Assembly: GCA_021786295.1 (NCBI GenBank)
Contig: JAJYNO010000033.1
Span: 1,775-65,774, forward strand
Direction: 5' to 3'
From: a bacterium
Lineage (GTDB): Bacteria > Elusimicrobiota > Elusimicrobia > Elusimicrobiales > UBA9959
DNA: 64,000 bases
Part shown: piece by piece, positions 4,254 through 53,551 of the stretch
Layout: every line of letters starts with the position of its first letter
Numbering within the stretch: the first letter of the stretch is position 1
The notes under the pieces: generated by a model
The model's input: only the letters and a program-made list of their open reading frames with translations
Databases searched by the model: none
Told to the model about the DNA's origin: nothing
Position numbers and translations under genes: made by a program

Positions 4254-5921
4254 ATGCTCCCCGTCCTGCTCAAACGCAAAGCTTCCACCTTCCGGAACGC
4301 GCTGCTGTCCCTGCGCGGCTGGAAACTGATAAAGAACCTGATGTTCGCCGGCGTCGGGCTGTCCATGCTGGCCCTGCTCTACGCCGGGTTCTGGCGGCTG
4401 CTCGACTACCTGGAGGGGGTGGAGCTGATAGGCCCGATGCTGTCCTGGAAACTGACCTCCATGGTGCTGCTGATGACCTTCACCATGGTCATCGTGTCGT
4501 CGATCATCATCTCGATGACGACGCTGTACTACTCCTTCGACCTGAAGTTCCTTTTTTCCTGCCCGCTGGACCTGCGCTCCATCTTCATGGACAAGGCGCT
4601 GGAGACCGTTTTCTACTCGTCGTGGACGCTGCTGCTGGCCGTGCTCCCCTATATCGTGGCGCTGGGGCGCGTGAAGGGCCTGGACGCCGGGTTCTACGCG
4701 GTCTACCTCTTCCTGATGGGCCCCTTCGTGCTGCTGGCCGGGGCCTTCGGCATCCTGTTCAGCATGCTGGTGATGTACTGCTTCCCGTCGTCGCGCACGC
4801 GCGACGTCACGTGGCTCCTGGGCAGCCTGTCCGTCGCCTTCGTCTACGTCGTGTTCCGCTTCTCCAGGCCGGAAAAGCTGCTGCGGCCCGACTCGCTGCA
4901 GATAGTGGCGCAGTACATCCAGTACCTGCAGTCCCCGACCGCGCCGTACATGCCGTCGTGGTGGGTCACCAAGGCCATGGTGGCCTATTCCGCCGGGCAC
5001 TGGGCGGCCTTCGCCTCCGCCTCCGGAGTGCTGTTCGGGGCCGCGGCGGTCCTTTATTTCCTGATCTACGCCCTTTCGGGGCGCCTCTACATGCGCGGCT
5101 TCAGCGGCGCGCAGTCCTCCCCGCGTTTCCGCGGCTCCCGCCGCCTGCTGCCGGAGCAGCGGCTGGCGCTTCGCTTCCCGGCCCTGCGCCGCACGCTGAC
5201 GCTCTACTGGAAGGACCGCCTCACGCTGGCGCGCGACGCCCGCTACTGGTCGCAGGTCATCCTGATAGCGGCCCTGATGGCCGTCTACCTTTTCAGCATC
5301 CGCCAGCTGCCGCTGGACACGCCCGACCTCAAGAGCCTGATCTCGTTCCTTAACGTAGGGGTGGCCGGTTTCGTCATGGCCGCCATCGGCCTGCGCTTCA
5401 CCTTTCCCGCGGTCAGCCTGGAGGGTAACAGCTACTGGCTGCTCAGGTCCGCCCCGCTCGGCACCGCCGCAGTCATGCGCGAGAAGCTGTACGTCTCGCT
5501 CTTCCCTTCCGTGCTGATAGGCGTCGTGCTGATAACGGTCTCGAACTATCTTCTGCGCGCCGACCTCTTCGTCTCGCTGCTCTCCACCTTCACGATCGCG
5601 GTGGTGGCCGTGGGCGTGACCGTGATGGGGATAGGCTTCGGCGCCATCTTCCCGGATTTTAACGTCGAGAACATTCACCAGCTGGAGTCCTCCTACGGCG
5701 GCTTCCTGTACATGGCCTGCGCCATGGGCTACCTTTCGCTGGTGGTGGCCACGGAGGCCTGGCCCGTGCAGATGCATTTCGCCGAGAGGCTGGGCCGGCG
5801 CGACCCGTGGGACGCGCGTGCGCTGCTCCTGTGCGCGGCGACTTTCGCGGCCGTCAACGCGGCCGCCTTCTACATCCCGTGGAAGGCCGGCCTGAGGAAT
5901 CTCGAAAGGCATGATATCTAG
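4254..5921 (+). CDS. Polytopic membrane protein, putative permease partner of the ABC ATPase (putative ABC-exporter type)
   Basis: 555 aa with many hydrophobic helices, located directly downstream of the ATPase gene. Confidence 0.55.
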   Translation: MLPVLLKRKASTFRNALLSLRGWKLIKNLMFAGVGLSMLALLYAGFWRLLDYLEGVELIGPMLSWKLTSMVLLMTFTMVIVSSIIISMTTLYYSFDLKFLFSCPLDLRSIFMDKALETVFYSSWTLLLAVLPYIVALGRVKGLDAGFYAVYLFLMGPFVLLAGAFGILFSMLVMYCFPSSRTRDVTWLLGSLSVAFVYVVFRFSRPEKLLRPDSLQIVAQYIQYLQSPTAPYMPSWWVTKAMVAYSAGHWAAFASASGVLFGAAAVLYFLIYALSGRLYMRGFSGAQSSPRFRGSRRLLPEQRLALRFPALRRTLTLYWKDRLTLARDARYWSQVILIAALMAVYLFSIRQLPLDTPDLKSLISFLNVGVAGFVMAAIGLRFTFPAVSLEGNSYWLLRSAPLGTAAVMREKLYVSLFPSVLIGVVLITVSNYLLRADLFVSLLSTFTIAVVAVGVTVMGIGFGAIFPDFNVENIHQLESSYGGFLYMACAMGYLSLVVATEAWPVQMHFAERLGRRDPWDARALLLCAATFAAVNAAAFYIPWKAGLRNLERHDI

Positions 5922-5933
5922 AGAGGTGTACCT

Positions 5934-6677
5934 ATGAAAAGAACGTTATTCTCCGCGCTCGCCCTCGTGCTGCTGGCCGCCGGGCCGGCCCCGGCCGCTC
6001 AGCGCCCCGCGCCGCAGCGGCACGCCCCGCGCGATTTCTACGCCGACGGCAGCCCCAGAAAGCCGGAGTTCGCGCTGACCTTCGACGACGGTCCCGGCTA
6101 CATCACCGAGGACCTGCTGAAGCTGCTGGCCAAGCGCGGCGTAAAGGCCACGTTCTTCATGATCGGCTACTCCGTCCGTGCGTACCCGCAGCGCGCCCGG
6201 GACGTGGCCGCCGCCGGCAACCTGGTCGGCAGCCACACGGACACGCACGAGAACTGGTACGCGCTGGAGAAGAAGGGGAAAAGTCAGGCGTGGCTCAAAC
6301 AGGAATTCCGCAAGGAACTGGACCGCGCCGCCGCCTCCATAGAGAAGGCCGCCGGCGTGCGTCCGAGGTTCCTGCGCATGCCCAACGGCTACTGCCGCGG
6401 CTGGGCCCGCAAGGAAGCCGCCTCGATGGGCTACACGATGGTCAACTGGAGCTACGGCAGCGACTGGACCCGCAAGCCGGAGGCCCAGATGACTGCGGAG
6501 TACCTGAAGGCCCTGCGTCCCGGCGCCATCCTGCTGATGCACGACGGCGGGGGGAAGAACCGTGAGAAGACCCTGCGCATAGTCGCCGCGGTCCTCGACG
6601 AAGCTCAAAAGAAGGGCCTAAAGCCTGTCCGCCTGGACGAGCTGCTAGGTCTGCAAGAGCCGTCAGCCAAGCGCTAA
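5934..6677 (+). CDS. Secreted polysaccharide deacetylase (NodB homology domain, CE4)
   Basis: Signal peptide MKRTLFSALALVLLAAGPAPAA plus the NodB motifs TFDDGP, SHTDTH, LRMPNGY and LLMHDG. Confidence 0.85.
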   Translation: MKRTLFSALALVLLAAGPAPAAQRPAPQRHAPRDFYADGSPRKPEFALTFDDGPGYITEDLLKLLAKRGVKATFFMIGYSVRAYPQRARDVAAAGNLVGSHTDTHENWYALEKKGKSQAWLKQEFRKELDRAAASIEKAAGVRPRFLRMPNGYCRGWARKEAASMGYTMVNWSYGSDWTRKPEAQMTAEYLKALRPGAILLMHDGGGKNREKTLRIVAAVLDEAQKKGLKPVRLDELLGLQEPSAKR

Positions 6678-6814: not shown

Positions 6815-6864
6815 AAAAAGGGGACAGGCTACTTTTTCGCTAAAAAGTAGCCTGTCCCCTTTTT
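6815..6864. repeat. REPIN-like inverted doublet of the GGGGACAGGCTACTTTT unit; bidirectional terminator shape
   Basis: AAAAAGGGGACAGGCTACTTTTT-CGCT-AAAAAGTAGCCTGTCCCCTTTTT. It forms a perfect stem of about 23 bp between convergent tRNA-Leu (+) and the AI-2E permease gene (-). Confidence 0.9.
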
Positions 6865-19306: not shown

Positions 19307-19448
19307 AAAAAGGGGACAGGCTACTTTTCCAGGCCTTAAACCTCGACGGAGAAAAACAGGGACAGGCTACTTTTTCCACAAAAAGTAGCCTGTCCCTGTT
19401 TTTTTAGCTATGGAACTCTGGCCTGGAAAAGTAGCCTGTCCCCTTTTT
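19307..19448. repeat. Nested REPIN-like element (an inverted doublet inside an inverted doublet)
   Basis: Outer 28-bp perfect arms AAAAGGGGACAGGCTACTTTTCCAGGCC (19308-19335) and GGCCTGGAAAAGTAGCCTGTCCCCTTTT (19420-19447). The inner hairpin is AAAAACAGGGACAGGCTACTTTTT-CCAC-AAAAAGTAGCCTGTCCCTGTTTTT (19352-19402). Confidence 0.9.
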
Positions 19449-19618: not shown

Positions 19619-21373
19619 ATGGCTGACGAGAACAAGGAAGAGACACTGCACAAGATGCGCCACTCGCTGGCGCACGTGATGGCCCAGGCCGTAGCCGAGC
19701 TCTGGCCCGGCGTGAAGTTCGGCATAGGCCCCGCCATCGACAACGGCTTCTACTACGATTTCGACCTCGAGCACCACTTCACCCCCGAGGACCTGCCCCT
19801 CATCGAGAAGAAGATGAAGCACATCCTGGGCGCCGCGCAGAAGTTCGAGCGCGTGGAGCTGCCGCGCGCCGAGGCCCTTAAGCACTTCGAGGCCAAGGGC
19901 GAGAAGTACAAGGTGGAGCTCATCAACGACCTGCCCGAGGGCTCCGTGATCTCCGTCTACCGCAACGGCCCGTTCGAGGACCTCTGCAAGGGCCCGCACG
20001 TGGAGCACACCGGCAAGCTGAAGGCTTTCAAACTGACGCACGTGGCCGGCGCGTACTGGCGCGGCAGCGAGAAGAACGCCATGCTGCAGCGCATCTACGG
20101 CGTGGCTTTCGAGACGCCCGCCGAGCTCGACGCGTACCTCAAGCAGCAGGAAGAGGCCGCCCGCCGCGACCACCGCAAGCTCGGCCGCCAGCTGGACCTC
20201 TACAGCATCAACGAGACCGTCGGGCCGGGCCTCGTGCTCTGGCACCCCAACGGCGCCCGCATCCGCCACGAGATCGAGACCTTCTGGAAGGCGGAGCACT
20301 TCAAGGGCGGCTACGAGCTGGTGAACACGCCTCACATCGGCCGCGCCAACCTGTGGGAGACCTCCGGCCACCTCGGCTTCTACCGCGAGTCCATGTACGC
20401 GCCGATGAAGATCGACGACATCGAGTACTACGCCAAGCCGATGAACTGCCCTTTCCACATAGAGATCTACAAGGCCAACTCGCACAGCTACCGCGACCTG
20501 CCGCTGCGCTGGGCCGAGCTCGGCACGGTGTACCGCTTCGAGAAGGCCGGCGTGCTGCACGGCCTCATGCGCGTGCGCGGCTTCACGCAGGACGACGCCC
20601 ACCTGATCTGCACCCAGGAGCAGATGGAGTCCGAGGTCATAGAGGTGCTGCGCTTCAGCATGAACATCCTGCGCACTTTCGGCCTCAAGGACATCAAGGC
20701 CTACCTCGCCACCCGCCCCGAGGGCGCCGTCGGCGAGCAGGCCCTCTGGGAGGCCGCCCAGAAGAGCCTGAAGGCGGCCGCCGAGAAGGAAGGCGTGCCC
20801 GTGGAGCTCGACGAGGGCGGCGGCGCCTTCTACGGCCCCAAGATCGACCTCAAGGTCAAGGATTCCATCGGCCGCGAGTGGCAGATGAGCACCATCCAGT
20901 TCGACTTCAACGAGCCGGAGCGCTTCGGCATAGAGTACACCGGCGCCGACGGCGCCAAGCACCGCCCGTACATGATCCACCGCGCGCTGCTGGGCTCGCT
21001 CGAGCGCTTCTTCGGCATCATCATCGAGCACTACGCGGGCAACTTCCCGCTGTGGCTCGCCCCGGTGCAGATGAAGGTGCTCAATATCACGTCGGAGGAG
21101 GAAGGCTACGCCAGGGAAGTGGAGGCCAAACTGAAGGCCGCCGGCTTCCGCGTGAAGACCGACCTGCGCCCCGACACCATCAACGCCAAGGTGCGCGACG
21201 CCACCGTCCACAAGGTGCCGTACCTCGTGGTGGTCGGCAAGAAGGAGAAGGACGCCGGCACCGTCACCCTGCGCCTGCGCGGCAACAAGAGCGTCTTCAA
21301 CGTGAACCTGGAAGAGTTCATCGCGAAGACTAAGGAAGAGGCCGTCTCCCGCTCCCTCTCCGGAGCCTACTAA
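19619..21373 (+). CDS. thrS: Threonine--tRNA ligase (lacks the N-terminal TGS domain)
   Basis: 584 aa. It is collinear with E. coli ThrS from about residue 64 (RHSLAHVMAQAV..GPAIDNGFYYDFDL, HRKLGRQLDLY, KPMNCPFH, GFTQDDAHLIC, GAFYGPKID, MIHRALLGSLERF). Confidence 0.95.
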   Translation: MADENKEETLHKMRHSLAHVMAQAVAELWPGVKFGIGPAIDNGFYYDFDLEHHFTPEDLPLIEKKMKHILGAAQKFERVELPRAEALKHFEAKGEKYKVELINDLPEGSVISVYRNGPFEDLCKGPHVEHTGKLKAFKLTHVAGAYWRGSEKNAMLQRIYGVAFETPAELDAYLKQQEEAARRDHRKLGRQLDLYSINETVGPGLVLWHPNGARIRHEIETFWKAEHFKGGYELVNTPHIGRANLWETSGHLGFYRESMYAPMKIDDIEYYAKPMNCPFHIEIYKANSHSYRDLPLRWAELGTVYRFEKAGVLHGLMRVRGFTQDDAHLICTQEQMESEVIEVLRFSMNILRTFGLKDIKAYLATRPEGAVGEQALWEAAQKSLKAAAEKEGVPVELDEGGGAFYGPKIDLKVKDSIGREWQMSTIQFDFNEPERFGIEYTGADGAKHRPYMIHRALLGSLERFFGIIIEHYAGNFPLWLAPVQMKVLNITSEEEGYAREVEAKLKAAGFRVKTDLRPDTINAKVRDATVHKVPYLVVVGKKEKDAGTVTLRLRGNKSVFNVNLEEFIAKTKEEAVSRSLSGAY

Positions 21374-21421
21374 AAAGGGGACAGGCTACTTTTTTCTCAA
21401 AAAAGTAGCCTGTCTTTTTTT
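21372..21421. repeat. REPIN-like inverted doublet acting as the thrS terminator (3' arm truncated)
   Basis: AAAAAGGGGACAGGCTACTTTTTT-CTC-AAAAAAGTAGCCTGTC-TTTTTTT starts at the thrS stop codon. Confidence 0.85.
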
Positions 21422-21464
21422 GTCTCCACGACAGGCCCTTGTCGGGTTCGCCTGCTAGAATAAG

Positions 21465-21481
21465 GGGGACAGGCTACTTTT
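21465..21481 (+). repeat. Single REP-like unit (GGGGACAGGCTACTTTT), left flank of the RAYT gene
   Basis: Exact core match 52 nt upstream of the RAYT start. Confidence 0.85.
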
Positions 21482-21532
21482 CGCCACGCTTTTCTCCGGC
21501 CTGCTATCCTGCGCCGTAAACAAGGGGGGCGT

Positions 21533-22234
21533 ATGCCGAGAATACGCAGAGGTCTGGGGGACGACCAACTCTACCACGTTATCAACCGCGGCAACGGCCG
21601 CGCGCGCGTTTTCCACAAGGAGGAGGACTATTCCGCCTTCGCCGGCCTGCTCGGCGAGGCCGCAACGCGCTATCCCGTGCGCCTCTTCGCCTACTGCCTG
21701 ATGCCGAACCACTTCCACCTCCTCGTAAGTCCCCACCAGGCCCACCAGCTCAGTCAGTGGATGCAGTGGCTCATGACGGCCCATGTCCGCCGGTACCGCG
21801 CCCATTACGGCGGCTCCGGGCATATCTGGCAGGGGCGCTACAAGGGCTTCCTAATCCAGGGGGACGCGCATCTGCTGGCCGTGGCCCGCTATGTGGAGGG
21901 CAATTCGGTGCGGGGCGGCCTTGCGCCGTCGGCGGCTGCCTGGCCATGGTCGTCGCACAACGAGACCATCGGCGCCGGCCCGCGCGCTCTCACGGAGCCC
22001 CTGCCTACGGAACTCCCGCCTAACTGGACGGCGTACGTGGACACCCCTATCAGCGAGGCCGAACTCCGCAAGATGCGGGAGAGCGTCCGGCGGCAGACGC
22101 CTTACGGTGACGACTCATGGCAAAAGAGCGTCTCCATTGCCTATCATCTTGAGTCCACGCTCCATCCTCAGGGCCGGCCCAGGAAGGAGCTGCCGGTCGA
22201 GTCGCGCGAGCCTTTAAGCCTGCCTCTGGCATGA
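21533..22234 (+). CDS. REP-associated tyrosine transposase (RAYT; IS200/IS605-like Y1 HUH transposase, COG1943)
   Basis: 233 aa with YHVINRGN, an intact HUH motif in YCLMPNHFHLLV, the catalytic Tyr context GHIWQGRYKGF, and ARYVEGNSVRGGL...WPWSS. Confidence 0.8.
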   Translation: MPRIRRGLGDDQLYHVINRGNGRARVFHKEEDYSAFAGLLGEAATRYPVRLFAYCLMPNHFHLLVSPHQAHQLSQWMQWLMTAHVRRYRAHYGGSGHIWQGRYKGFLIQGDAHLLAVARYVEGNSVRGGLAPSAAAWPWSSHNETIGAGPRALTEPLPTELPPNWTAYVDTPISEAELRKMRESVRRQTPYGDDSWQKSVSIAYHLESTLHPQGRPRKELPVESREPLSLPLA

Positions 22235-22344
22235 CTCTAAGCGGGTACTGACCGAATCCGGCCGGTGCTCAGCCGGGGGCGCAGGCTGATTTTATACGGC
22301 CTTTATGCGAGCATTGCCAGGCCTTTATCCGGCCTTTAGCCTTG

Positions 22345-22407
22345 AAAAGTAGCCTGTCCCCGTTTTTCCCCCTACTAGAGCTGGTGCTAAAAAAGTAGCC
22401 TGTCCCC
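22345..22407 (-). repeat. Direct doublet of REP-like units in minus orientation (right flank of the RAYT gene)
   Basis: AAAAGTAGCCTGTCCCC at 22345-22361 and AAAAAAGTAGCCTGTCCCC at 22389-22407. Confidence 0.85.
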
Positions 22408-22418
22408 TTTTTTCTTAC

Positions 22419-43510: not shown

Positions 43511-44575
43511 ATGCACTTTGGTCACAAGCTGATAGTGGTGTTCCTGGTCTCGCTCGTCTCCACTTATCTGGTGATCTGGCTGGCGCGGCTGCTGTCCTTC
43601 GGGATAGACGCGGTGAAGGGCAAGAAGCACTGCACGCACAAGCGCGCCGTGCCCCGGCTGGGCGGGCTGGGGATATTCGCGGGCTTCGCCGCTGGTTATT
43701 ACCTTTTCGGGCTGGATTTCATAGCTTCCACGCTGATGATCTGCGTGGCGCTGCCCTTCCTGCTGGGGCTGGTGGAGGACGTCACCCAGCGCCTCAGCGC
43801 CAATTTCCGCTTCCTGATGATGGCGCTGTTCTCGCTGACGGCGCTGTTCCTGGTGGGGGACCTGATCGTCTACGATATAGGCGTGGACCTGCCGGTGTAC
43901 GCGGCGGTGCCGCTCACCATCCTGGCCTTTACCGGGCTGGCCAACGCCATTAACCTTATAGACGGCTTCAACGGGCTGGCGGCGGGCATAAGCGCTATGG
44001 CCTTCGCCGGGCTGGCGATGGTGTCGTATCTGCATTTCAGGCAGGGGGTGTTCGCCACCTCGCTTACCATGCTGTTCTCCATAGCGGGGTTCGTCGTCTT
44101 CAACTTCCCCGGCGGGAGGATCTTCCTGGGCGACGGCGGGGCGTATTTCATGGGGTTCATGCTGGCGCTGCTCTCCGCGTTGCTGATAAACCGCGGCATA
44201 GGGATAATCTCGCCGTGGTTCCCGGTGGCGCTGCTGCTCTACCCCATAACGGACACGCTGTTCGCCATCTACCGGCGCCGGGTGCTGAAGGGGCGCAAGG
44301 CGTTCGCGGCGGACCTGCTGCACATGCACAGCCTGGTGTACAAGCGGGTGGCGCGCAAGAACCACCTGACCTCTATCTACGTGCTGCTCTTCAACCTGCC
44401 GTTCACTGTTTTTGCGGTGCTGCTGTACCGCAATACGGTGGGGCTCATTGTGCTCTGCGGGTTTTACGTTATGGGTTACGTGACGTTGTACATGGCCATT
44501 GTGAATTTCCGGATAAAGAAGGTGGTCGGCAACCCCATGCTCCCCGCCGACGGCGAAGGCATCAAGCTACTGTAA
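43511..44575 (+). CDS. Polyprenyl-phosphate HexNAc-1-phosphate transferase (MraY/WecA/WbpL family, initiating enzyme)
   Basis: 354 aa with about 10 TM and the motifs NAINLIDGFNGLAAG and FLGDGGAYFMGF. Confidence 0.85.
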   Translation: MHFGHKLIVVFLVSLVSTYLVIWLARLLSFGIDAVKGKKHCTHKRAVPRLGGLGIFAGFAAGYYLFGLDFIASTLMICVALPFLLGLVEDVTQRLSANFRFLMMALFSLTALFLVGDLIVYDIGVDLPVYAAVPLTILAFTGLANAINLIDGFNGLAAGISAMAFAGLAMVSYLHFRQGVFATSLTMLFSIAGFVVFNFPGGRIFLGDGGAYFMGFMLALLSALLINRGIGIISPWFPVALLLYPITDTLFAIYRRRVLKGRKAFAADLLHMHSLVYKRVARKNHLTSIYVLLFNLPFTVFAVLLYRNTVGLIVLCGFYVMGYVTLYMAIVNFRIKKVVGNPMLPADGEGIKLL

Positions 44576-44592: not shown

Positions 44593-44757
44593 AAAAGGGG
44601 ACAGGCTACTTTTTCCGGGGGGCGAATGGCGGGTTTCCCGACGCGGGGCCTTGATGGAAAAACGGGGACAGGCTGCTTTTCTTGCGAAAAGTAGCCTGTC
44701 CCCGTTTTTTTACCTCGGGAAGGCGCCCCAGAAAAAGTAGCCTGTCCCCTTTTTACC
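44593..44757. repeat. Composite nested REPIN-like element A (X-H1-Y)
   Basis: REP cores at 44597(+), 44664(+), 44687(-) and 44732(-). See the mobile_element entry for sub-structure. Confidence 0.9.
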
Positions 44758-44760
44758 TTT

Positions 44761-45888
44761 TTATGCTGAGAGCTGAGCTAGCCAGGAGGCGGCTGGGGAG
44801 ATGACGATGTCGCCTTCCCTGTGTTCCTTGCGCGCATTGTGTACAAGTTGTACGGCGCGCACGGCCGAATGGCGGGCCTTAAAATAGGCCAGATTGCGGC
44901 TCGGCGCTTCGTCGGATAGTTTTACTTCAAGGAACTCCGTCAATTCCCCGTTCTGCGCCAAGGCGAAGTCCACTTCCCTGCCGTCCTTTGTGCGCAGGTA
45001 GTGCAGCGACACGTCCGAGCCCTTGGCGTCTTGCAGGTATTGCACGTGCTTGAGCAGTGATACCGCCACGGTGTTTTCCAGGCGGGCACCCTCGTCCCCG
45101 TCTACATAGCCGCTGTCGTAAAAATATATTTTCGGCTCTTTTAAAAGCGATCTGGCTATGTTCTTGTGGAACGGGCGGACCGGGAATATTATATGCAGGC
45201 TTTCCAGGATTTCCATGTATTTGCGGATGGTGTTGGGGGCCACTTGTAAGTCGCCGGCCAGGGAGGTGTAGGACAGCGGGGAGCCAGTGCGCCTGCGTAG
45301 CATTTCAAGCAGCAGTCGTATGGCCCGTACCTCGGTTATGCGGCTGAAGTCCAGGATGTCCTCGCGTACTAGGTCGGTGTAGTATTGGCGGCGCCAGCGG
45401 GCGGCATCGTCTTCGGAGCCGGAAAGGAACGGTTCGGGAAAGCCTCCCAGGCGGTTTAGTGCCGAAAGGGCCTCGTACGGCGACATAGTGGCGGCCAGCT
45501 CTTTTACCGACAGCGGGTTGAGGCGGTAGAGAAAATATCGTCCGGCGAGTGAATCTCCGGTCTGTCGGAAAGTGTCCAGCCTGGCGCTGCCGGTGATAAG
45601 GAAACCTTGGGCCTCGGGCCGGGTGTCGAATGTCCCTTTTAGGAAATTCTTCCAGCCTTTCATCTTATGAATTTCGTCCAGTATTACCAGATCGGAATCA
45701 AGCGGCCAGGTGCGGTTGCGTATTATCCTGATGTCCGAAACGTCGTCCTGGTTGAGGTAGATGGTTTTTTTAAAATGCTCCCCCACGCTTTTGGAAAAAA
45801 ACGTTTTCCCGACTTGGCGCGGGCCGGTTATGAAGATCATCTTTTTCTTTATGTCCGGTATCACATTGCTTTGGAGGTAGCGTTCCAT
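44761..45888 (-). CDS. AAA+ ATPase with DUF4143-type C-terminal domain (COG1373-like)
   Basis: 375 aa with Walker A ITGPRQVGKTF, Walker B LVILDEIH, and a C-terminal region as in AAA_14/DUF4143 proteins. Confidence 0.8.
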   Translation of the reverse strand: MERYLQSNVIPDIKKKMIFITGPRQVGKTFFSKSVGEHFKKTIYLNQDDVSDIRIIRNRTWPLDSDLVILDEIHKMKGWKNFLKGTFDTRPEAQGFLITGSARLDTFRQTGDSLAGRYFLYRLNPLSVKELAATMSPYEALSALNRLGGFPEPFLSGSEDDAARWRRQYYTDLVREDILDFSRITEVRAIRLLLEMLRRRTGSPLSYTSLAGDLQVAPNTIRKYMEILESLHIIFPVRPFHKNIARSLLKEPKIYFYDSGYVDGDEGARLENTVAVSLLKHVQYLQDAKGSDVSLHYLRTKDGREVDFALAQNGELTEFLEVKLSDEAPSRNLAYFKARHSAVRAVQLVHNARKEHREGDIVISPAASWLAQLSA

Positions 45889-45894
45889 TTTAGT

Positions 45895-45924
45895 ATTTTA
45901 TGCATAATATTGCCGTTTAGTCAA
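45895..45924 (-). promoter_or_regulatory. Near-consensus sigma70-type promoter of the ATPase gene; predicts a leaderless or near-leaderless mRNA
   Basis: The minus strand reads TTGACT (45924-45919), 18 nt, TAAAAT (45900-45895), 6 nt, then ATG (45888-45886). No Shine-Dalgarno sequence is present. Confidence 0.5.
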
Positions 45925-45943
45925 GACTAATATGCAAAGTAAA

Positions 45944-46109
45944 GGTAAAAGGGGACAGGCTACTTTTTCTGGGGCGCCTTCCCGAGGTAAAAAAACGGGG
46001 ACAGGCTGCTTTTCTTGCGAAAAGTAGCCTGTCCCCGTTTTTCCATCAAGGCCTCACGTCGGGAAACCTGCCCTGCGCCCTCCCAGAAAAAGTAGCCTGT
46101 CCCCTTTTT
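45944..46109. repeat. Composite nested REPIN-like element B (Y'-H2-X')
   Basis: REP cores at 45951(+), 45997(+), 46020(-) and 46087(-). The flanks are the reverse complement of element A, while the central 52 nt are in the same orientation as in A. Confidence 0.9.
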
Positions 46110-47424
46110 AGAACTTCAGGGTGGTGGAGAGGCCGGTGGTGAGGTAGAGGTGGTCGCCGGCGCCGGGGGCGGTGACGGTGGGGAGGGGGTTGGGGTCCTG
46201 GTTGACGGCGTAGTCCAGGCCGGCGTAAGGGGCCAGCGTGAAGCGGCCTGCCGGGCGGCTGGCGTAGACGGCCAGAGCCCAGCGCTCCATGCCGGCCTTG
46301 GGATAGGCCATCTGCTTAAGGTAGGTGGCGCGGTAGCCGAGCGTGCGCCCTCCGGAGAAGCGCATGTCGTGCGTGAACACCAGCGAGCGGTACTGGGTGC
46401 CGTACGGCGCGCCCATGCTCATGCCGCCGTAGGTGTAGCCCTCCACCGGGTACCAGTGGTGCACGTAGAACAGGCGCGGGGTCATGAGGAACTCCAGCCG
46501 GAAGGTCTGCCTGCCGGTGTCCATTACCACGCCGCCCAGGTAGGCGTTCAATGTCATCTCGAACGGCCAATAAAACTGCTTGCTCGGATTGATGTCGGTG
46601 CAGGCGCGCTCGTAGTAGACCTTCAGGCTCCTGGCGGCCGCGGGCCTCAGCCGTGCCGGCAGGTTTAGGGAGACGTCGTAGGCGAGGTAGCCGTCGGCGT
46701 CGTACTTGTTGCCGGGCTGGTTCTCGTGCTTGCCCAGCAGCAGCTCCGGGAACTCCCACGGCCAGTAGTCCGGGCGGCCGGCGCCGCCGTATTCCTCGCC
46801 CCGGGTGAGGCCCAGCGTGAGCAGGTCCGAAGGCGCCCAGCCCAGCCGGCCGACGAAGACGCGCGGGTCCTTGCGGTCCGGCGGGGGGCGGTGCGGGTCG
46901 TCCAGCCAGGCGTTGACCACGTCGATGTCCCACTTGCCGTGCCAGAGCAGCGGGCGTTCGGTTTTTACGCGCAGCATGGGCATGGGGGCGGCGTTGTTTG
47001 ACAGCAGCAGCGCCTGCGCGCCGGGACCTATGCTCTCGGAGTCCTTTCCGAGGGTGATGGAGAATATCCCCACATATTGTTTCAGGTAGAGCTTCTGCAG
47101 GCCGCCCTTGGCGTAGCGGCCGTTGGCGTCCTGGCGCAGGGTGTAGCGAAGCTCGGCGTTCTTCCACGGGGCGAAGCCGCCGTCGGCGAACATGATCAGG
47201 TTCAGGCCCTTGCGGAACTGCAAACCTTCCGCGTCCGGTATGAAGGAGAGGCCCTCGCCGGCGTAGAAGACGTCGGCCGTGATGGAATTGAGCGGTTTTA
47301 GTTCGGAGCCTGCCTCTCCGCCCGTCCACGGCGTTGAAGCTCCGGCCGCCGGGCCCGCCGCCAGCGCCGCCGCCAGCGCTATCAAGGCTATGCAGCCGGT
47401 CTTTCTCTTCATCCGTCTTTTCAT
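46108..47424 (-). CDS. Secreted protein, probable outer-membrane beta-barrel (possibly Wzi-like capsule-assembly protein)
   Basis: Signal peptide MKRRMKRKTGCIALIALAAALAAGPAAGA, alternating beta-strand-like pattern rich in Y/G/W, and the C-terminal motif LSTTLKF ending in Phe. The Wzi assignment is from context only. Confidence 0.45.
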   Translation of the reverse strand: MKRRMKRKTGCIALIALAAALAAGPAAGASTPWTGGEAGSELKPLNSITADVFYAGEGLSFIPDAEGLQFRKGLNLIMFADGGFAPWKNAELRYTLRQDANGRYAKGGLQKLYLKQYVGIFSITLGKDSESIGPGAQALLLSNNAAPMPMLRVKTERPLLWHGKWDIDVVNAWLDDPHRPPPDRKDPRVFVGRLGWAPSDLLTLGLTRGEEYGGAGRPDYWPWEFPELLLGKHENQPGNKYDADGYLAYDVSLNLPARLRPAAARSLKVYYERACTDINPSKQFYWPFEMTLNAYLGGVVMDTGRQTFRLEFLMTPRLFYVHHWYPVEGYTYGGMSMGAPYGTQYRSLVFTHDMRFSGGRTLGYRATYLKQMAYPKAGMERWALAVYASRPAGRFTLAPYAGLDYAVNQDPNPLPTVTAPGAGDHLYLTTGLSTTLKF

Positions 47425-47486
47425 CTGCTAAGTATATTAAAAACGGGGACAGACGTCATTTCCCGGGCGCGCGCGGGGGCGCAATT

Positions 47487-47494
47487 TGTATAAT
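47487..47494 (+). promoter_or_regulatory. -10 promoter element for the HEPN-MNT-rfbC operon
   Basis: TGTATAAT 50 nt upstream of the ATG at 47545. Confidence 0.45.
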
Positions 47495-47544
47495 TTTCCA
47501 CATGGGGGCGCCTTAGAGCCGCGAAAAACGCGCCCGGAGAACAA

Positions 47545-47952
47545 ATGCCCTTGGACCTCAGCAGTCTTAAGAAAGCCGTCGATTCCCTTGACCGCGCTCT
47601 CGAAGTGGCCGCCGGCCCGGCGACGCCCGGGCAACAGGAAGTGCTGCGGGCCGGCGTGATACAGAACTTCGAGTTCACCTACGAACTGTGCTGGAAGTTT
47701 ATGAAGCGCTGGCTGGAGCTCAACGCCGGAGCGGCGGTCGCGGACGGCGCCACCCGCAAGGAGCTTTTTCGCCTCGCTGCGGAAAGCCGTCTGATAACCG
47801 GCGTTGAGAACTGGTTCCGCTACCACGCCGCCCGCAACGAGACCGCCCATACCTACGACCCGGCCAAAGCCACGGAGATATCCCGGCTGGCCGCGCCCTT
47901 CGCCGGCGACGCCCGCAGGCTGCTGGAGGCCCTGGAAGAGCGCAATGATTAA
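47545..47952 (+). CDS. HEPN-domain protein (HI0074-type)
   Basis: 135 aa with the VIQNFEFTYELCWKFMKRWL pattern and the Rx4H motif RNETAH. Confidence 0.8.
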   Translation: MPLDLSSLKKAVDSLDRALEVAAGPATPGQQEVLRAGVIQNFEFTYELCWKFMKRWLELNAGAAVADGATRKELFRLAAESRLITGVENWFRYHAARNETAHTYDPAKATEISRLAAPFAGDARRLLEALEERND

Positions 47953-48235
47953 GGCCACGCCGGCGCAACTGGATTCGATACGCGGCATCCTGGCGCGTCA
48001 TGCGCCGGGGACTGAGGCGCGCGTGTTCGGGTCGCGCGTCGTCGGCGAGTCCAAGGAATACTCGGACCTGGACCTGGCGTTGGTGGGCCCGGCGAAGCTG
48101 GATCCGGTGGTGATGGAGGCTCTTCGCGAGTCTTTTGCCGAGTCCGACCTGCCCTTCCGGGTGGACGTGCTGGACTGGCACGCCATCTCCCCGGAGTTCC
48201 GGCAGGTGATAGAGCGGAAATACGAGGTGCTCTGA
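47949..48235 (+). CDS. Minimal nucleotidyltransferase (MNT) partner
   Basis: 95 aa with GSRVVGESKEYSDLDLALVG. It has a 4-nt overlap with the HEPN gene and its stop is 2 nt before the rfbC start. Confidence 0.8.
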
Positions 48236-48237
48236 CA

Positions 48238-48816
48238 ATGAAATTCGAATTCACCCGGACCGCGATACCGGGGCTTGTGGTGGTTGCGCCGCAGACCGGG
48301 CGCGACGAGCGGGGGACCTTTTCCGAGCAGTACAAGGCCTCCGAGTTCCGCAAAGGCGGGATCAAGGACGTATTTGTGCAGGAGAACCGTTCCGTCAGCC
48401 GCAAGGGCGTGCTGCGGGGGCTGCACTTCCAGCGGCCGCCGCGCGCGCAGGCCAAACTGGTGCGCTGCGGGCACGGCCGCGTGTGGGACGTGGCGGTGGA
48501 CCTGCGCCGCGGCTCGCGCACTTACGGCAAATGGTTCGGGCTGGAGCTTTCGCGCGAGAACAACCTCATGCTCTATATCCCGGAGGGCTTCGCCCACGGC
48601 TTCTGCGCGCTCACGGACCGCGCCGAGGTCATTTACATGTGTTCTAAGGAGTATGCTCCCGCTTCCGATTCCGGAGTGCGCTGGGACGATCCCAGGCTGG
48701 CCGTGAAGTGGCCGGTGAAGAAGCCGAAGATCTCTCCCAAGGACGCCGCGCTCCCTTTCCTTAAAAAGGGGACAGGCTGCTTTTTCCCCGGGGCGGGACA
48801 GGAATCCGCAGAATGA
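48238..48816 (+). CDS. rfbC: dTDP-4-dehydrorhamnose 3,5-epimerase
   Basis: RGTFSEQY, GVLRGLHFQ, KLVRCGHGRVWDVAVDLR and IPEGFAHGF motifs. The last ~17 codons run into a REP-like unit. Confidence 0.9.
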   Translation: MKFEFTRTAIPGLVVVAPQTGRDERGTFSEQYKASEFRKGGIKDVFVQENRSVSRKGVLRGLHFQRPPRAQAKLVRCGHGRVWDVAVDLRRGSRTYGKWFGLELSRENNLMLYIPEGFAHGFCALTDRAEVIYMCSKEYAPASDSGVRWDDPRLAVKWPVKKPKISPKDAALPFLKKGTGCFFPGAGQESAE

Positions 48817-48851
48817 GAATGGCTCCCGGAAAAAGGGGACAGGCTACTTTT
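48768..48851 (+). repeat. Direct doublet of REP-like units (plus orientation)
   Basis: GGGGACAGGCTGCTTTTT at 48768-48785 (variant with G) and GGGGACAGGCTACTTTT at 48835-48851. Confidence 0.85.
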
Positions 48852-48918
48852 CGGCTGGGGCCTGCTCCCAGGCGGGGACGGGGCTGACTTTGCGCCGGGA
48901 GTGTCGCTCCGGAAAAAC

Positions 48919-49911
48919 ATGAGAAAGAGGACGATTCTGGTGATAGGGGGGGCGGGCTATATCGGCTCACACGCCAACAAGGCGCTGGCCGCGGCAGGCT
49001 ACCGCACCGTTGTTTTTGACAACCTCTCCACCGGCCACCGTCGGCTGGCGCGCTGGGGGGAGTTCTTTAAAGGCTCTCTATCGCGGCCGACCGACCTGTC
49101 TCGCTGTTTCAAGAAATATCGCATAGACGCCGTGCTGCATTTCGCCGCGTCCGCTTATGTGGGCGAGTCGGTGACGGACCCTGCCAAGTATTACGCTAAT
49201 AACGTGGTGAACACGCTGAACCTGCTCAACGTTATGCGCGCGGCCGGCGTGAAGCGGTTGGTGTTCTCTTCTTCCTGCGCGGTCTACGGCGAACCTGCCT
49301 CACTGCCGATGAGGGAAAACTTGCCGAAGAACCCGGTGAATCCGTACGGCCGTACCAAGCTGATGATGGAGCAGGCTATGGCGGATTACTCCGCGGCCTA
49401 CGGGCTTAAGTATATAGCTTTGCGCTATTTCAATGCGGCCGGGGCGGATCCCGACGGCGAGGCCGGCGAGCTGCACGCCCCCGAGACGCACCTGATCCCG
49501 CTGGTGCTGGACGCGGCGTCCGGCCGGCGGCCGTGCATCAGCGTTTTTGGCGCGGATTATCCCACTCCGGACGGCACCTGCCTGCGCGACTACATCCACG
49601 TGACCGACCTGGCCCAAGCCCATCTGCTGGCGCTGCGCAGGCTGGAGGCCGGCGGCGAAAGCCGCGCGTTCAACCTGGGCAACGGCCGCGGCTTCAGCGT
49701 GCGACAGGTGATAAAGGCCGCCGAGAAGGTGACGGGGCTGAAGGTCCCTGTGAAGCTGGCGCCCAGGCGCGCGGGCGACCCGCCGGCGCTGGTGGCGTCC
49801 TCCGCGCTGATCCGGCGCGAACTGGGCTGGAAGCCGCTCTATCCCGGGCTGGAGACGATGCTCGCCCACGCCTGGCGCTGGTACCGGAAAGCGAACAAGG
49901 GAGTTCTATGA
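48919..49911 (+). CDS. galE: UDP-glucose 4-epimerase
   Basis: [13 protein letters not shown], the YGRTK catalytic motif and LRYFNAAGA. The ATG at 48919 lies within an ORF that opens at 48901. Confidence 0.85.
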
Positions 49912-50783
49912 AAGGCATAATCCTCGCCGGCGGCTCCGGCACGCGGCTTTATCCGCTAACGACGGTGGTGTGCAAGCAGTTGCTGCCTGTGTACGACAAG
50001 CCGATGATCTACTACCCGATGTCGGCGCTGATGCTGGCGGGAATACGGGACATACTGATCATCTCCACCCCGGCGGACCTGCCCCGCTTCAAGGATATCT
50101 TCGGCGACGGCTCGGCGTGGGGCCTCCGGTTGTCCTACAAGGCGCAGCCTAAGCCCGAGGGCATAGCCCAGGCCTTCCTGCTGGCCGAGGAGTTCCTGGG
50201 CAAGGACGACGCCTGCCTGGTGCTGGGTGACAATATTTTCTACGGCCATGGCCTGCCCGAAGCTTTCCGCCGCGCGGTGATCGGCGCCAGAAAGGGCAAG
50301 TCCACGGTGTTCGGGTACTACGTGAACGATCCTGAACGTTACGGCGTGGTGGCCTTCAATAAGAACGGCCGCGCCACTTCCATAGAGGAAAAGCCGAAAG
50401 AACCCAAATCCAATTACGCCGTGACCGGGCTGTACTTCTACCCCAACAGCGTTGTGAAAGTGGCCAAGGCCATAAAGCCCAGCGCCCGCGGCGAGCTGGA
50501 GATCACCGACGTGAATAAGGCTTATCTGAAGCGCGGCGCGCTCAACGTGGAGCTGCTCGGCCGCGGTTATGCCTGGTTGGACACCGGAACCTTTTCCAGC
50601 CTGCTTGAGGCCGGGGAGTTCATCGCCACGGTGGAGAAGCGGCAGGGGCTGAAGATAGCCTGCATAGAGGAAATAGCCTACGGCATGGGCTGGATAGACC
50701 GCGCCCGCCTGCTTAAGCTGGCCGCGGGCCTCAGCAAGAACAGCTACGGCGCCTACCTGCGCAAAGTGGCCGACGGGAACTGA
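49908..50783 (+). CDS. rfbA: Glucose-1-phosphate thymidylyltransferase
   Basis: [18 protein letters not shown]...[15 protein letters not shown], with an ATGA overlap with galE. Confidence 0.92.
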
Positions 50784-50790
50784 GGCGGAT

Positions 50791-51630
50791 ATGCGCGTAC
50801 TTATAACCGGGTCCAAAGGACAGCTTGGCGCGGCATTCGAGCGGCGCTTCAAGAAGAACGGGTGGGATTACGCGGCGGCGGATGCCGATACGCTGGACAT
50901 CACCGACGGGAACGCCGTGGTGGAAGCGGTGATGCCCTACAGGCCAGGCCTTATACTGAACTGCGCGGCCTACAACCAGGTGGACAAGGCCGAGGCCGAG
51001 CCGGAGAAGGCCTACGCGGTCAACGCCGAGGGCGTGCGCAACCTGGCCCATGTGGCCCGCCGGTTGGAGAGCACGCTGGTCCACTTCGGCACCGATTATG
51101 TCTTCGACGGGGTCAAGCGCGCGCCTTACGTAGAGGCCGACCCCGTCAACCCGCTGAACCGCTACGGCGCCTCCAAACTTAAGGGCGAGGAGTACGCGCT
51201 GGGCGTGCCCGGCGCGCTGGTGCTGCGGCTGAGCTGGGTGTACGGGCGCGGCGAGCAGAACTTTATTCGCAAGCTGCTGGGCTGGGCCGCCGGGCCGGGG
51301 CCGCTGCGCGTGGCTGACGACGAGGTCTCCGTGCCAACCAGCACGGAGGACGTCGTCGGCGCGACCATGGAGGCGCTTAAGGCCGGGCTCTTCGGCCGCT
51401 GGCACCTTACGGCGGGCGGCAGCTGTTCGCGCTATGAGTGGGCCGGAGAGATACTCAAAGGCTTCGGCGTGGGCAAGGAACTGCTGCCGGCCAAGATGGC
51501 CGACTTCAACCTGCCCGCGCGCAGGCCGGGCTATTCGGTAATGTCCAGCGCCGCCATTTCCGCCGAGCTGGGCCTGAAGCTGCCGCACTGGCGCGATTCC
51601 GTGGAGAAGTTCATAAGGGAGAACAGATGA
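50791..51630 (+). CDS. rfbD: dTDP-4-dehydrorhamnose reductase
   Basis: [34 protein letters not shown]. Confidence 0.9.
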
Positions 51631-52700
51631 AGACCATCCTCGTCACCGGCGGCGCTGGTTTCATAGGCTCCAATTTCATCCGCTACGTCTTCGAAAAATC
51701 GGGCTTCAAGGGCCGCATCGTCAACCTGGACAAGCTGACCTACGCCGGCAACCAGGAGAACCTCTCCGACGTGGCGCGCGAGTACGAAGGACGTTACGTC
51801 TTCGTCAAGGGCGACATCTGCGATTACGCGCTGCTGGGGCGGCTGTTCAAAAAGCACCGCTTCGACGCGGTGGCGCACTTCGCGGCCGAGTCCCACGTGG
51901 ACCGCTCCATCTTCGGGCCGAAGGACTTCGTGGAGACCAACATCCACGGCACGTTCGCCCTGCTGGAGGCCGCGCGCCGGGCCTGGCCCGGCCGCCGGGA
52001 CGTGCGCTTTCACCACGTCAGCACCGACGAGGTTTACGGCTCGCTCGGCCGCACCGGCAAGTTCAAAGAGACCACGCCCTACGCCCCCCGCAGCCCGTAC
52101 TCCGCCAGCAAGGCCTCGTCGGACCACCTGGCGATGGCCTACCACCATACCTACGGCCTGCCTGTCACCATCTCCAACTGCTCCAACAACTACGGGCCCT
52201 ACCATTTCCCCGAGAAGCTGATCCCGCTCGTCGTCCTGAACGCGCTGGAAGGCAAGCCGCTGCCGGTGTACGGCGACGGCAACCAGGTGCGGGACTGGCT
52301 CTACGTCGAGGACCACTGCGCGGCCATCTGGCTGGTGATGCGCCGCGGCCGCCCGGGCGGGACCTACAACGTGGGCGGCGGCAGCGAGAAGAGGAACATC
52401 GACGTGGTGAAGGGCGTCTGCGCCGCGCTGGAGGAGCTGCTCCCCTCGGCGGAGAACCCGGCGCTGAAGGGCCGCGGCTACGCGGACCTGATAACTTTCG
52501 TCAAGGACCGCCCCGGCCATGACCGCCGCTACGCTATCGATTTCGGCAAACTGCGCCGCGAGCTGGGCTGGAAGCCGTCGGTCAGCTTCGCCGAAGGCCT
52601 GCGCCGCACCGTGGCCTGGTACCTGGCCAACCCGGAATGGGTCAGGAGCGTAAAGACCGGGGAGTACCGCAAATGGCTGCAGAAAAATTACCGCAGGTAG
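51627..52700 (+). CDS. rfbB: dTDP-glucose 4,6-dehydratase
   Basis: [33 protein letters not shown] and [11 protein letters not shown] motifs, with an ATGA overlap with rfbD. Confidence 0.92.
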
Positions 52701-53437
52701 TCTTCCTGGGCACCAACGGCTGGTACGACACGGCGGCCACAGGCAACGCCGTGTGCGCGCTGGTCAGGACGCGCCGCTGGGACGTCGTGCTCGACGCGGG
52801 CAACGGCCTTTACAAACTGGACCGGTACGTCGACGGGAAGAAGCCGGTCTTCCTGTTCCTTAGCCATTTCCACATCGACCACATCGCCGGGCTGCACGTG
52901 CTTGCCAAGTTCAGGCTGGCTGCCGGCCTGACCATCTGCGGCGGCAAGGGCGCGCGCCGCCACCTGGGGCGCTTTGTGAACAGGCCGTTCAGCGTCCCGC
53001 TGGACAAGCTGCCCTACCCGGTGAAAGTCCTGGAACTGCCTGCTGACAGGGCCAGCCTGCCCTTCAGGGCCGAGAGCCTGCCGCTGGTGCACGCCGACCC
53101 GGTACTGGGCTACCGCCTCAAGCTGGACGGCAAGGTCCTCTCCTACATAACCGACACCGGCCCCTGCCCCAACGCGCTGGCGCTGGCGCGGGGGGCCGAC
53201 CTGCTGATAACCGAATGCGCCAATCTGCCGGGGGAGTTCAACCCAGGCTGGCCGCACTTCAACCCGGAGACCGCCGGCGGGCTGGCCGCCGAGGCCGGCG
53301 CGGGCCGCCTGGTCATGACCCATTTCTCGGCCGCGCGCTACACCTCCTGGTCCGCCCGGCTGAAGGCGCGCTCCGTGGCCCGCCGCGAGTTCCCTCGCGC
53401 CGAGGCCGCCAGGGACGGCCTGCGGATAGCCATTTAG
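52673..53437 (+). CDS. MBL-fold metallo-hydrolase (RNase Z-like)
   Basis: [12 protein letters not shown] (HxHxDH) motif. The start ATG at 52673 overlaps the rfbB end. Confidence 0.7.
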
Positions 53438-53456
53438 CCTGCCCGGCCGGCGTGTT

Positions 53457-53465
53457 TGCTATAAT
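53457..53465 (+). promoter_or_regulatory. Extended -10 promoter element upstream of gmd
   Basis: TGCTATAAT (perfect TGnTATAAT) 20 nt after the MBL gene stop and about 100 nt before gmd. Confidence 0.5.
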
Positions 53466-53487
53466 ATCTATATTATGGACAAGCTAC

Positions 53488-53551
53488 AAAAAGTAGCCTG
53501 TCCCCTTTTTCTATCGCTGGGGAGAACGGCTGAAAAAAGTAGCCTGTCCCC
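53488..53551 (-). repeat. Direct doublet of REP-like units (minus orientation) in the gmd leader
   Basis: AAAAAGTAGCCTGTCCCC at 53488-53505 and AAAAAAGTAGCCTGTCCCC at 53533-53551. Confidence 0.85.

Follow-up and report, generated by a model that had tools for sequence, protein, structure and literature searches.

Systems of repetitive extragenic palindromic (REP) sequences, their inverted pairs (REPINs) and the REP-associated tyrosine transposases (RAYTs) were described by Nunvar (2010) and by Bertels & Rainey (2011), and are summarised in PMC3390384. Their structural features, a multi-copy extragenic palindromic repeat with a GTAG head, inverted pairs of that repeat forming hairpins, higher-order clusters of such pairs, and a Y1 (HUH) transposase gene bracketed by the repeat, all have counterparts in a 64,000-nucleotide stretch of a genome from the Elusimicrobiota (assembly GCA_021786295.1, contig JAJYNO010000033.1; hereafter the window). 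Described REPINs are non-coding and carry no cargo, whereas at positions 44593-46109 of the window two nested REPINs, with directly repeated inner cores and inverted arms, enclose a protein gene. The gene encodes a candidate defence protein, an ATPase-nuclease that matches the PDC-S01 family. We propose that it is a PDC-S01 module that was inserted at a REPIN terminator, that a 52-nt hairpin, H, was duplicated or exchanged in the process, and that the module is now probably invertible; we give this reading about an even chance of being correct.

PDC-S01 is reported to rank fourth in frequency as a defence candidate in prokaryotes, its validation pending, and was described as such through 'guilt by embedding' (PADLOC; PMC12988326). 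The present gene shares with the family its match to the model, the fusion of an ATPase to a PD-(D/E)XK nuclease, and a variable genomic setting, with a toxin-antitoxin pair and genes for surface polysaccharides close by. We found no account that treats PDC-S01 as a mobile module with sharp limits and direct repeats at its flanks, and it is as such that we propose it here.

The combination of a single open reading frame (ORF) with an imperfect palindromic site, and of hybrid sites left on both sides after recombination, recalls integron cassettes; here, however, the gene comes with a promoter, its sites are REPs belonging to the host genome, no integrase family occurs among the neighbouring genes, and H ends CCCCGTTTTT with no GTTRRRY core. 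The pdif/XerCD modules of Acinetobacter plasmids are small, recombinase-less units bounded by imperfect palindromes, and the insertion sequences IS1397 and ISKpn1 target REPs. The locus differs from these in having no 28-nt dif-like site, no transposase, and a duplication of 52 nt rather than 3-4 bp. The two end hairpins of IS200/IS605 elements present the same strand, a likeness that the two copies of H reproduce in geometry only, and the searches described below found no further copy of the unit. Cargo transposons carry the same ends at several sites; here the spacers of the outer arms, X and Y, do not occur beyond the two nested REPINs (A and B) in the window or in 221 fetched loci, which means that no dispersed composite exists of which A and B would be copies.

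Structure of the locus

The segment has the order X-H1-Y, ATPase gene, Y'-H2-X' (Table 1), where X-H1-Y is element A (44593-44757) and Y'-H2-X' is element B (45944-46109), and it is flanked by convergent wbpL-like and wzi genes. An earlier note, made from the letters alone, had described this feature, and re-alignment confirms that it is real and lies where it had been placed. H1 and H2 are identical at 52/52 positions and in direct orientation, as that note had read them; H differs from its own reverse complement at six positions, namely the loop CTTGCG and a G/A stem mismatch. Y and the reverse complement of Y' differ solely by one T in a T-run, again as reported, while the 'about eight' mismatches between the inverted X and X' are seven mismatches and one indel.

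H is a hairpin with a 24-bp stem, a TTGC loop and one G.T/C.A stem position (folding energy -41.7 kcal/mol, z = -12), and its arms are asymmetric, with GTAG on one and GCAG on the other and the G.T pair on the + strand only. A and B are 87% complementary over 157 nt ungapped, and each is a self-contained nested hairpin with an outer stem of 27-31 bp. Divergence between them is uneven: eight differences in 65 positions for X/X', none in 52 for H and one in 48 for Y/Y'. In alignment Y' is X with two deletions, and X-H-X' and Y'-H-Y would therefore be two members of one nested-REPIN subfamily.

The ATPase gene, directly adjoined by Y at its stop codon, is the only ORF between the repeats, and its own sigma-70-type promoter (TTGACT-18-TAAAAT) lies at 45924-45895; ORF, Pfam and promoter together bear out the earlier picture of a gene with its own promoter between convergent neighbours. 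No transposase or integrase was found inside or beside the unit, nor a dedicated invertase or recombinase among the neighbouring genes, which within 10 kb on either side belong to Pfam families of sugar metabolism or toxin-antitoxin systems.

Table 1. Positions in the window of the ATPase segment, its neighbours and related REP features
Feature	Position	Strand	Details
Simple REP hairpin after tRNA-Leu	6820/6847
Nested REPIN between gene end and tRNA-Val	19307..19448		cores 19312-19443; inner pair 19358/19385; spacing 46/27/46
RAYT, IS200-like Y1 transposase	21533..22234	+	HUH motif NHFHLL; PF01797, 3.8e-17
Glycos_transf_4 (WbpL/WecA-like) gene, left neighbour	43511..44575	+	ends long polysaccharide operon; Pfam PF00953, 2.8e-28
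X, outer left arm of nested REPIN A	44593..44657		REP core 44597-44609 + 43-nt spacer
H1, 52-nt inner REPIN hairpin	44658..44709		direct repeat copy 1; predicted + strand terminator
Y, outer right arm of A	44710..44757		22-nt spacer + REP core 44737-44749; inverted repeat of Y'
ATPase-nuclease gene, AAA_14 - wHTH - DUF4143 (PD-(D/E)XK)	44761..45888	-	PADLOC PDC-S01 candidate
Module's own promoter + operator-like palindrome	45889..45943	-	region conserved in homologues
Y', outer left arm of nested REPIN B	45944..45990		inverted copy of Y, one T fewer
H2, 52-nt inner hairpin	45991..46042		direct repeat copy 2
X', outer right arm of B	46043..46109		inverted copy of X; overlaps wzi stop codon
Wzi-family outer-membrane capsule-assembly gene, right neighbour	46108..47412	-	Pfam PF14052, 1.5e-28; 434-aa product on record
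REP cores bracketing 4.8-kb sugar-nucleotide gene block	48768...53551

A bounded gene module with flanking direct repeats

That the ATPase segment behaves as an inserted single-gene unit with its own promoter, as had been suggested, is supported by comparison with its relatives (80 metagenome loci and several more from exact protein look-ups). Where homologous copies stand in unrelated contexts, similarity starts 65 to 90 nt upstream of the gene and ends between the stop codon and 67 nt beyond it, so that the module begins at about -75; the pairs that define these boundaries, L183/L192, L207/L208 and L155/L156, have nucleotide identities of 96.7%, 94.4% and 90.6% respectively. The conserved upstream region (loci L137-L216 and L128-L134) contains the TTGACT promoter and two operator-like imperfect palindromes (GACTATTnnGCA-N5-TTGCAnAATAG). 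In the window this conservation begins only at about -55, the distal operator half, and with it the distal third of the region, being missing and Y' abutting in its place.

The repeats at the borders of the segment also have analogues across the family. When 350 nt on each side of the gene were compared and direct repeats scoring at least 20 were accepted, such repeats flanked the gene at 11/51 distinct ATPase loci (22%) and at 0/132 control position pairs taken in the same loci (Fisher p = 3e-7). The family's repeats are 25-130 nt long, 1290-1520 nt apart and unrelated in sequence from locus to locus, a series into which H1 and H2 (52 nt, 1333 nt apart) fit. An arrangement of another kind is seen at L129, where a 77% ATPase homologue lies between NUDIX and dnaE genes and has at each side hairpin elements that belong to another repeat family (GGGGTATCAAAAC; 4745-4914 and 6166-6296 of that locus) and, outside the hairpins, a perfect 16-nt inverted repeat, CTTTAATTATATAAAT (4683-4698 and 6369-6384).

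The best support for H1 and H2 as an insertion scar comes from the closest relatives, in which empty and occupied states of one site can be compared. Homologues of 85% identity (L137-L139, L128, L151 and L221) adjoin a WbpM-like gene. In the empty sites (L217, L219 and L220, from a related species, Elusimicrobia HGW-Elusimicrobia-3) the WbpM-like gene and a CsgG-like gene are 159 nt apart, and the spacer contains one terminator-like hairpin, AAAAAGGCCCCGTGAGGGGCC. In the occupied sites L139 and L151 this hairpin, together with a second, dispersed hairpin, is found in direct orientation on both sides of an insert of about 1.36 kb. The insert begins and ends with a 23-nt imperfect palindrome, between the copies of which the promoter, the ATPase gene and a terminator follow in that order. 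This is an independent instance in which the same gene family has landed at a terminator hairpin next to a polysaccharide cluster, with duplication of that hairpin. In these Elusimicrobia relatives the interval from the WbpM-like gene to a FecR gene is a hot spot of variation in gene content (L217, L219, L220, L139, L151, L137, L138 and L221), and three states of it were seen: a CsgG-like gene only, the ATPase with a CsgG-like gene, and the ATPase with a CopG-like gene.

The ATPase-nuclease

Pfam resolves the protein into AAA_14 (PF13173) and DUF4143 (PF13635), and the PADLOC match to PDC-S01 is strong (PDLC04790, 7.3e-56). Residues invariant in 41 aligned homologues are the Walker A stretch G22-T29, the pair D71/E72 and the motif D307...E321-V-K323. 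An AlphaFold (AF2) model with pLDDT 81 has an AAA+ domain followed by a winged helix and an alpha/beta C-terminal domain. DUF4143 (COG1373) is classed in the PD-(D/E)XK nuclease superfamily (PMC3424549). A sequence search of the PDB gave no match, and a whole-chain fold search returned AAA+ proteins only (RuvB, ORC, clamp loader and Apaf-1), so the assignment of the C-terminal domain to the PD-(D/E)XK nuclease family is a prediction from Pfam, the literature and the invariant D...ExK motif. In this form the nuclease-like C-terminal domain for which the earlier note proposed a test is upheld. The protein is a candidate for a defence role, predicted from its family. Its closest homologues carry Elusimicrobia names, and no relatives were found in viral contigs.

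Probable inversion of the segment

One contig, L126 (ENA ERZ27237177), contains the 3' end of wbpL, X, H and Y as in the window and then continues into the promoter side of the ATPase gene; the switch point falls within 60 nt, bounded by the H mismatch and the T-run, over which A and the reverse complement of B are identical. Another contig, L127 (JGI 3300039716), has the orientation of the window. Each of the two is a single contig from its own assembly. Over 1237 nt their identity is 100%, with three single-nucleotide polymorphisms (SNPs) relative to the window in common; they represent the same strain, near-identical to that of the window. Inversion of the segment is, in our judgement, probably real. 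Since the promoter is inside the segment, the flip is more likely to be a by-product of the inverted repeats than a switch, and the neighbourhood has no recombinase of the kind that accompanies phase switches. Excision and inversion had both been raised as alternatives for the unit; inversion now has one contig in its favour. Both L126 and L127 end exactly at window position 44435, inside the wbpL-like gene, which suggests a strain-level breakpoint or a repeat there.

Origin of the structure

In proposing a mechanism, we need to account for identical, direct H copies enclosed by inverted arms of unequal divergence. The 1.13-kb ATPase gene and its promoter would be a self-contained, horizontally mobile PDC-S01 module, which landed in a bidirectional terminator of the REPIN type, situated where the wbpL-like and wzi genes converge, and the direct, identical copies H1 and H2 would be the scar of that event. 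We envisage two routes. In the first, Y-module-Y' would be inserted with duplication of the H core. In the second, a chromosomal X-H-X' would undergo a single reciprocal exchange at H with a Y'-H-Y located beside the module on a circle, with a predicted size of 1,333 nt, or at an ectopic site. Either route would produce X-H-Y-module-Y'-H-X' in one step. With A and B as inverted repeats of 160 nt, the module could then be turned round by recombination within the identical 60 nt at Y. The REPIN would have served as the landing site and not as the vehicle, the module being probably independent of the REP/RAYT system.

We infer both the origin of the H pair with the insertion and the route of recombination. 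H1 and H2 are explained most economically as a scar of duplication or crossover, a reading backed by the excess of direct repeats around the gene across the family and by the comparison of empty with occupied sites in the relatives. The perfect identity of H fits either route, and the exchange route fits the inside-out Y/Y' and the layered repeats of L139 slightly better. Insertion with a duplicated 52-nt core, as the earlier note had envisaged it, thus gains support by analogy; what this locus does not provide is an empty site or support for a part played by the RAYT.

Several observations weigh against our proposal. Neither an empty site nor a second copy of the cassette was found for this genome in the 64 kb read. 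Look-ups with exact and homologous Wzi and WbpL sequences returned only the same arrangement or short contigs broken at the repeats, so that the predicted X-H-X' between the two genes was not recovered; a 90% Wzi relative (L135) has another gene downstream and no REP there. The donor carrying Y'-H-Y is hypothetical. The family's direct repeats are heterogeneous: strong hairpins are formed by 4/14 only, and we have rejected the notion that insertion always targets hairpins. The repeat at L173 is an internal fragment of dut that is not contiguous with the insertion point, and the most recent movers, L183/L192, have neither long repeats nor a short target duplication, both of which weaken simple staggered-cut target duplication as a family-wide mechanism. 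L126 could be an assembly chimera, although assembly at k=141 is unlikely to produce a false join across a repeat of only 60 nt. Finally, X-H-X' and Y'-H-Y, joined hypothetically, fold as near-perfect hairpins of 184 and 147 nt, but we have rejected this as evidence of insertion; B is approximately the reverse complement of A and the folding does not discriminate between models.

The best-surviving alternative, which we consider unlikely, is that two X-H-Y nested REPINs colonised, in opposite orientations, the spacers around a resident ATPase gene, and that the centre of one H (loop and mismatch position, about 18 nt) was later flipped by template switching in the hairpin or converted by the other copy, which would leave the H cores identical and direct. 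REP copies do flank ordinary genes intergenically in many genomes (for example L021 and L049), the 67/46 asymmetric geometry of the locus recurs at 48768...53551, the ATPase homologue at L129 is also flanked by local REP-like hairpins, and A and B, as self-contained nested hairpins, could each stand alone. However, a composite with spacers that are absent from all the other data would have to insert twice, and a third event would then, by chance, have to bring back 52/52 identity; the account leaves unexplained why Y/Y' and H are near-identical when X/X' differ by 12%, and it takes no account of the surplus of direct repeats across the family or of the empty sites.

Mobilisation of a REPIN-borne cargo by the RAYT in trans is distinctly improbable. 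The two H copies would here be left and right end hairpins of the IS200/IS605 type, with single-stranded DNA cut at the hairpin feet and a circle released and reinserted at another REPIN core. At a distance of 22 kb there is a RAYT gene with the same REP on both sides, and H has the asymmetry between its arms, and H1 and H2 the presentation of the same strand, that such ends would have. Yet the window, the 221 loci and the JGI metagenome and viral collections yielded no further copy of the cassette, of Y or of exact H, and exact H (40 nt) has 0 matches in the contigs of those collections. The ATPase was present in none of the 118 listed REP-bearing stretches of other genomes, and its homologues elsewhere (50-86% identity, 80+ loci) have unrelated flanks, without this REP, save for one downstream hairpin at L141. 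We know of no RAYT that moves cargo. The earlier suggestion of a REPIN-borne or RAYT-mobilised class of cassette, with Y ends recurring elsewhere and the same ATPase between the same ends, therefore finds no support in these comparisons; the link between RAYT and cassette is one of proximity and shared repeats, nothing more.

An accident of assembly is unlikely, since the same arrangement is present in a public metagenome-assembled genome (GCA_027372175.1, contig DAHXJO010000002.1) and its junctions, including the polarity of H, recur in the independent short contigs L127, L005 and L007; repeat-induced mis-joining is scarcely credible even though the source is itself a metagenome-assembled genome, short-read assemblies break at the repeats (L002, L003, L005 and L007) and the two assemblies of one strain (L126/L127) disagree in orientation, given also that the SNPs distinguishing A from B are linked consistently and that the look-ups reported two more long contigs with the same neighbours, both uninspected.

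A bolder extension of our proposal is that PDC-S01 modules are selfish single-gene mobile cassettes, which would form circles of about 1.3 kb, recombine at hairpins or dispersed repeats and leave layered direct repeats behind, with REPIN cores acting as attC-like sites in genomes rich in REPINs and the host RAYT or the module's own ATPase-nuclease as catalyst. We regard this as doubtful.

The REP family and its RAYT

The REP core, GGGGACAGGCTRC, has 22 copies in the window where 0.3 would be expected; every copy is in or at the edge of an intergenic spacer, in settings of five kinds. Inverted pairs that fold as hairpins, that is REPINs, are 6820/6847, H1, H2 and 19358/19385. The RAYT gene is bracketed by four cores (21377+ and 21465+ on one side, 22349- and 22395- on the other), and RAYT homologues of 45-59% identity are likewise flanked by the core at L038, L046, L068, L080, L072 and L117. 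These associations justify the REP/REPIN label, which the earlier note had already applied, and make the RAYT the candidate trans-acting enzyme of the family. The outermost left copy of the RAYT cluster (window 21372-22412) is itself a degenerate hairpin. Rfam gave sub-threshold matches to generic hairpins only, and an A/G polymorphism in the core, considered as a strand signal, led to no conclusion, the sample being biased by the search pattern.

REP sequences are normally lineage-specific. In a scan of one genome per species, however, the same 17-mer core, GGGGACAGGCTACTTTT, was found in at least 118 stretches from many phyla, including Aminicenantes, Myxococcaceae, Nitrospirota, Clostridia, Elusimicrobia, Campylobacterales, Bipolaricaulota and others; the six loci with flanked RAYT homologues are among these stretches. 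Such a spread is unusual for REPs and suggests that the RAYT-REP pair has moved horizontally.

The nested element at 19307-19448 had been taken as an intact example of exactly the X-H-X' architecture. It is nested, but its spacers are largely non-complementary, and in size it resembles Y'-H-Y and not X-H-X'. Across the clusters compared (6820-6859, 19312-19443, 21377-22407, 44597-46104 and 48768-53551) core spacings take few values, 27 for inner pairs and 46 or 67-68 for outer pairs, while spacer sequences are unrelated between clusters despite these recurring spacings. The block at 48768-53551, which contains epimerases, an NTP-transferase, and RmlD-like and Lactamase_B genes, is bracketed by two forward cores 67 nt apart and two reverse cores 46 nt apart; the block thus has the asymmetric layout of element A, except that genes stand where the inner loop would be. 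Between wzi and this cluster, at 47437-48816, lie a HEPN/MNT-like pair (NTase_sub_bind + NTP_transf_2) and rmlC. In L135 (1100-1300) the REP pair directly abuts wzi, which points to this segment of about 1.3 kb as another insertion or deletion beside a REP cluster.

Significance

The locus combines known kinds of structure, namely REPIN clusters, insertion of an accessory gene and flipping between inverted repeats, and is not a demonstrated new class. It would offer a naturally invertible segment beside surface-polysaccharide genes and, if our proposal is true, a test case for REPIN cores as recombination sites for foreign genes. The pattern that extends beyond this locus is that of sharp boundaries and flanking direct repeats across the family. 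PDC-S01 is among the most abundant reported candidate immune genes in bacteria and archaea, and if it is a discrete unit with a promoter of its own that settles time and again in hairpins or terminators and leaves long direct repeats, the mobility of the gene itself may in part account for its occurrence in 'defence islands'. If so, the ATPase-nuclease may act on DNA structures, instead of or besides phage.

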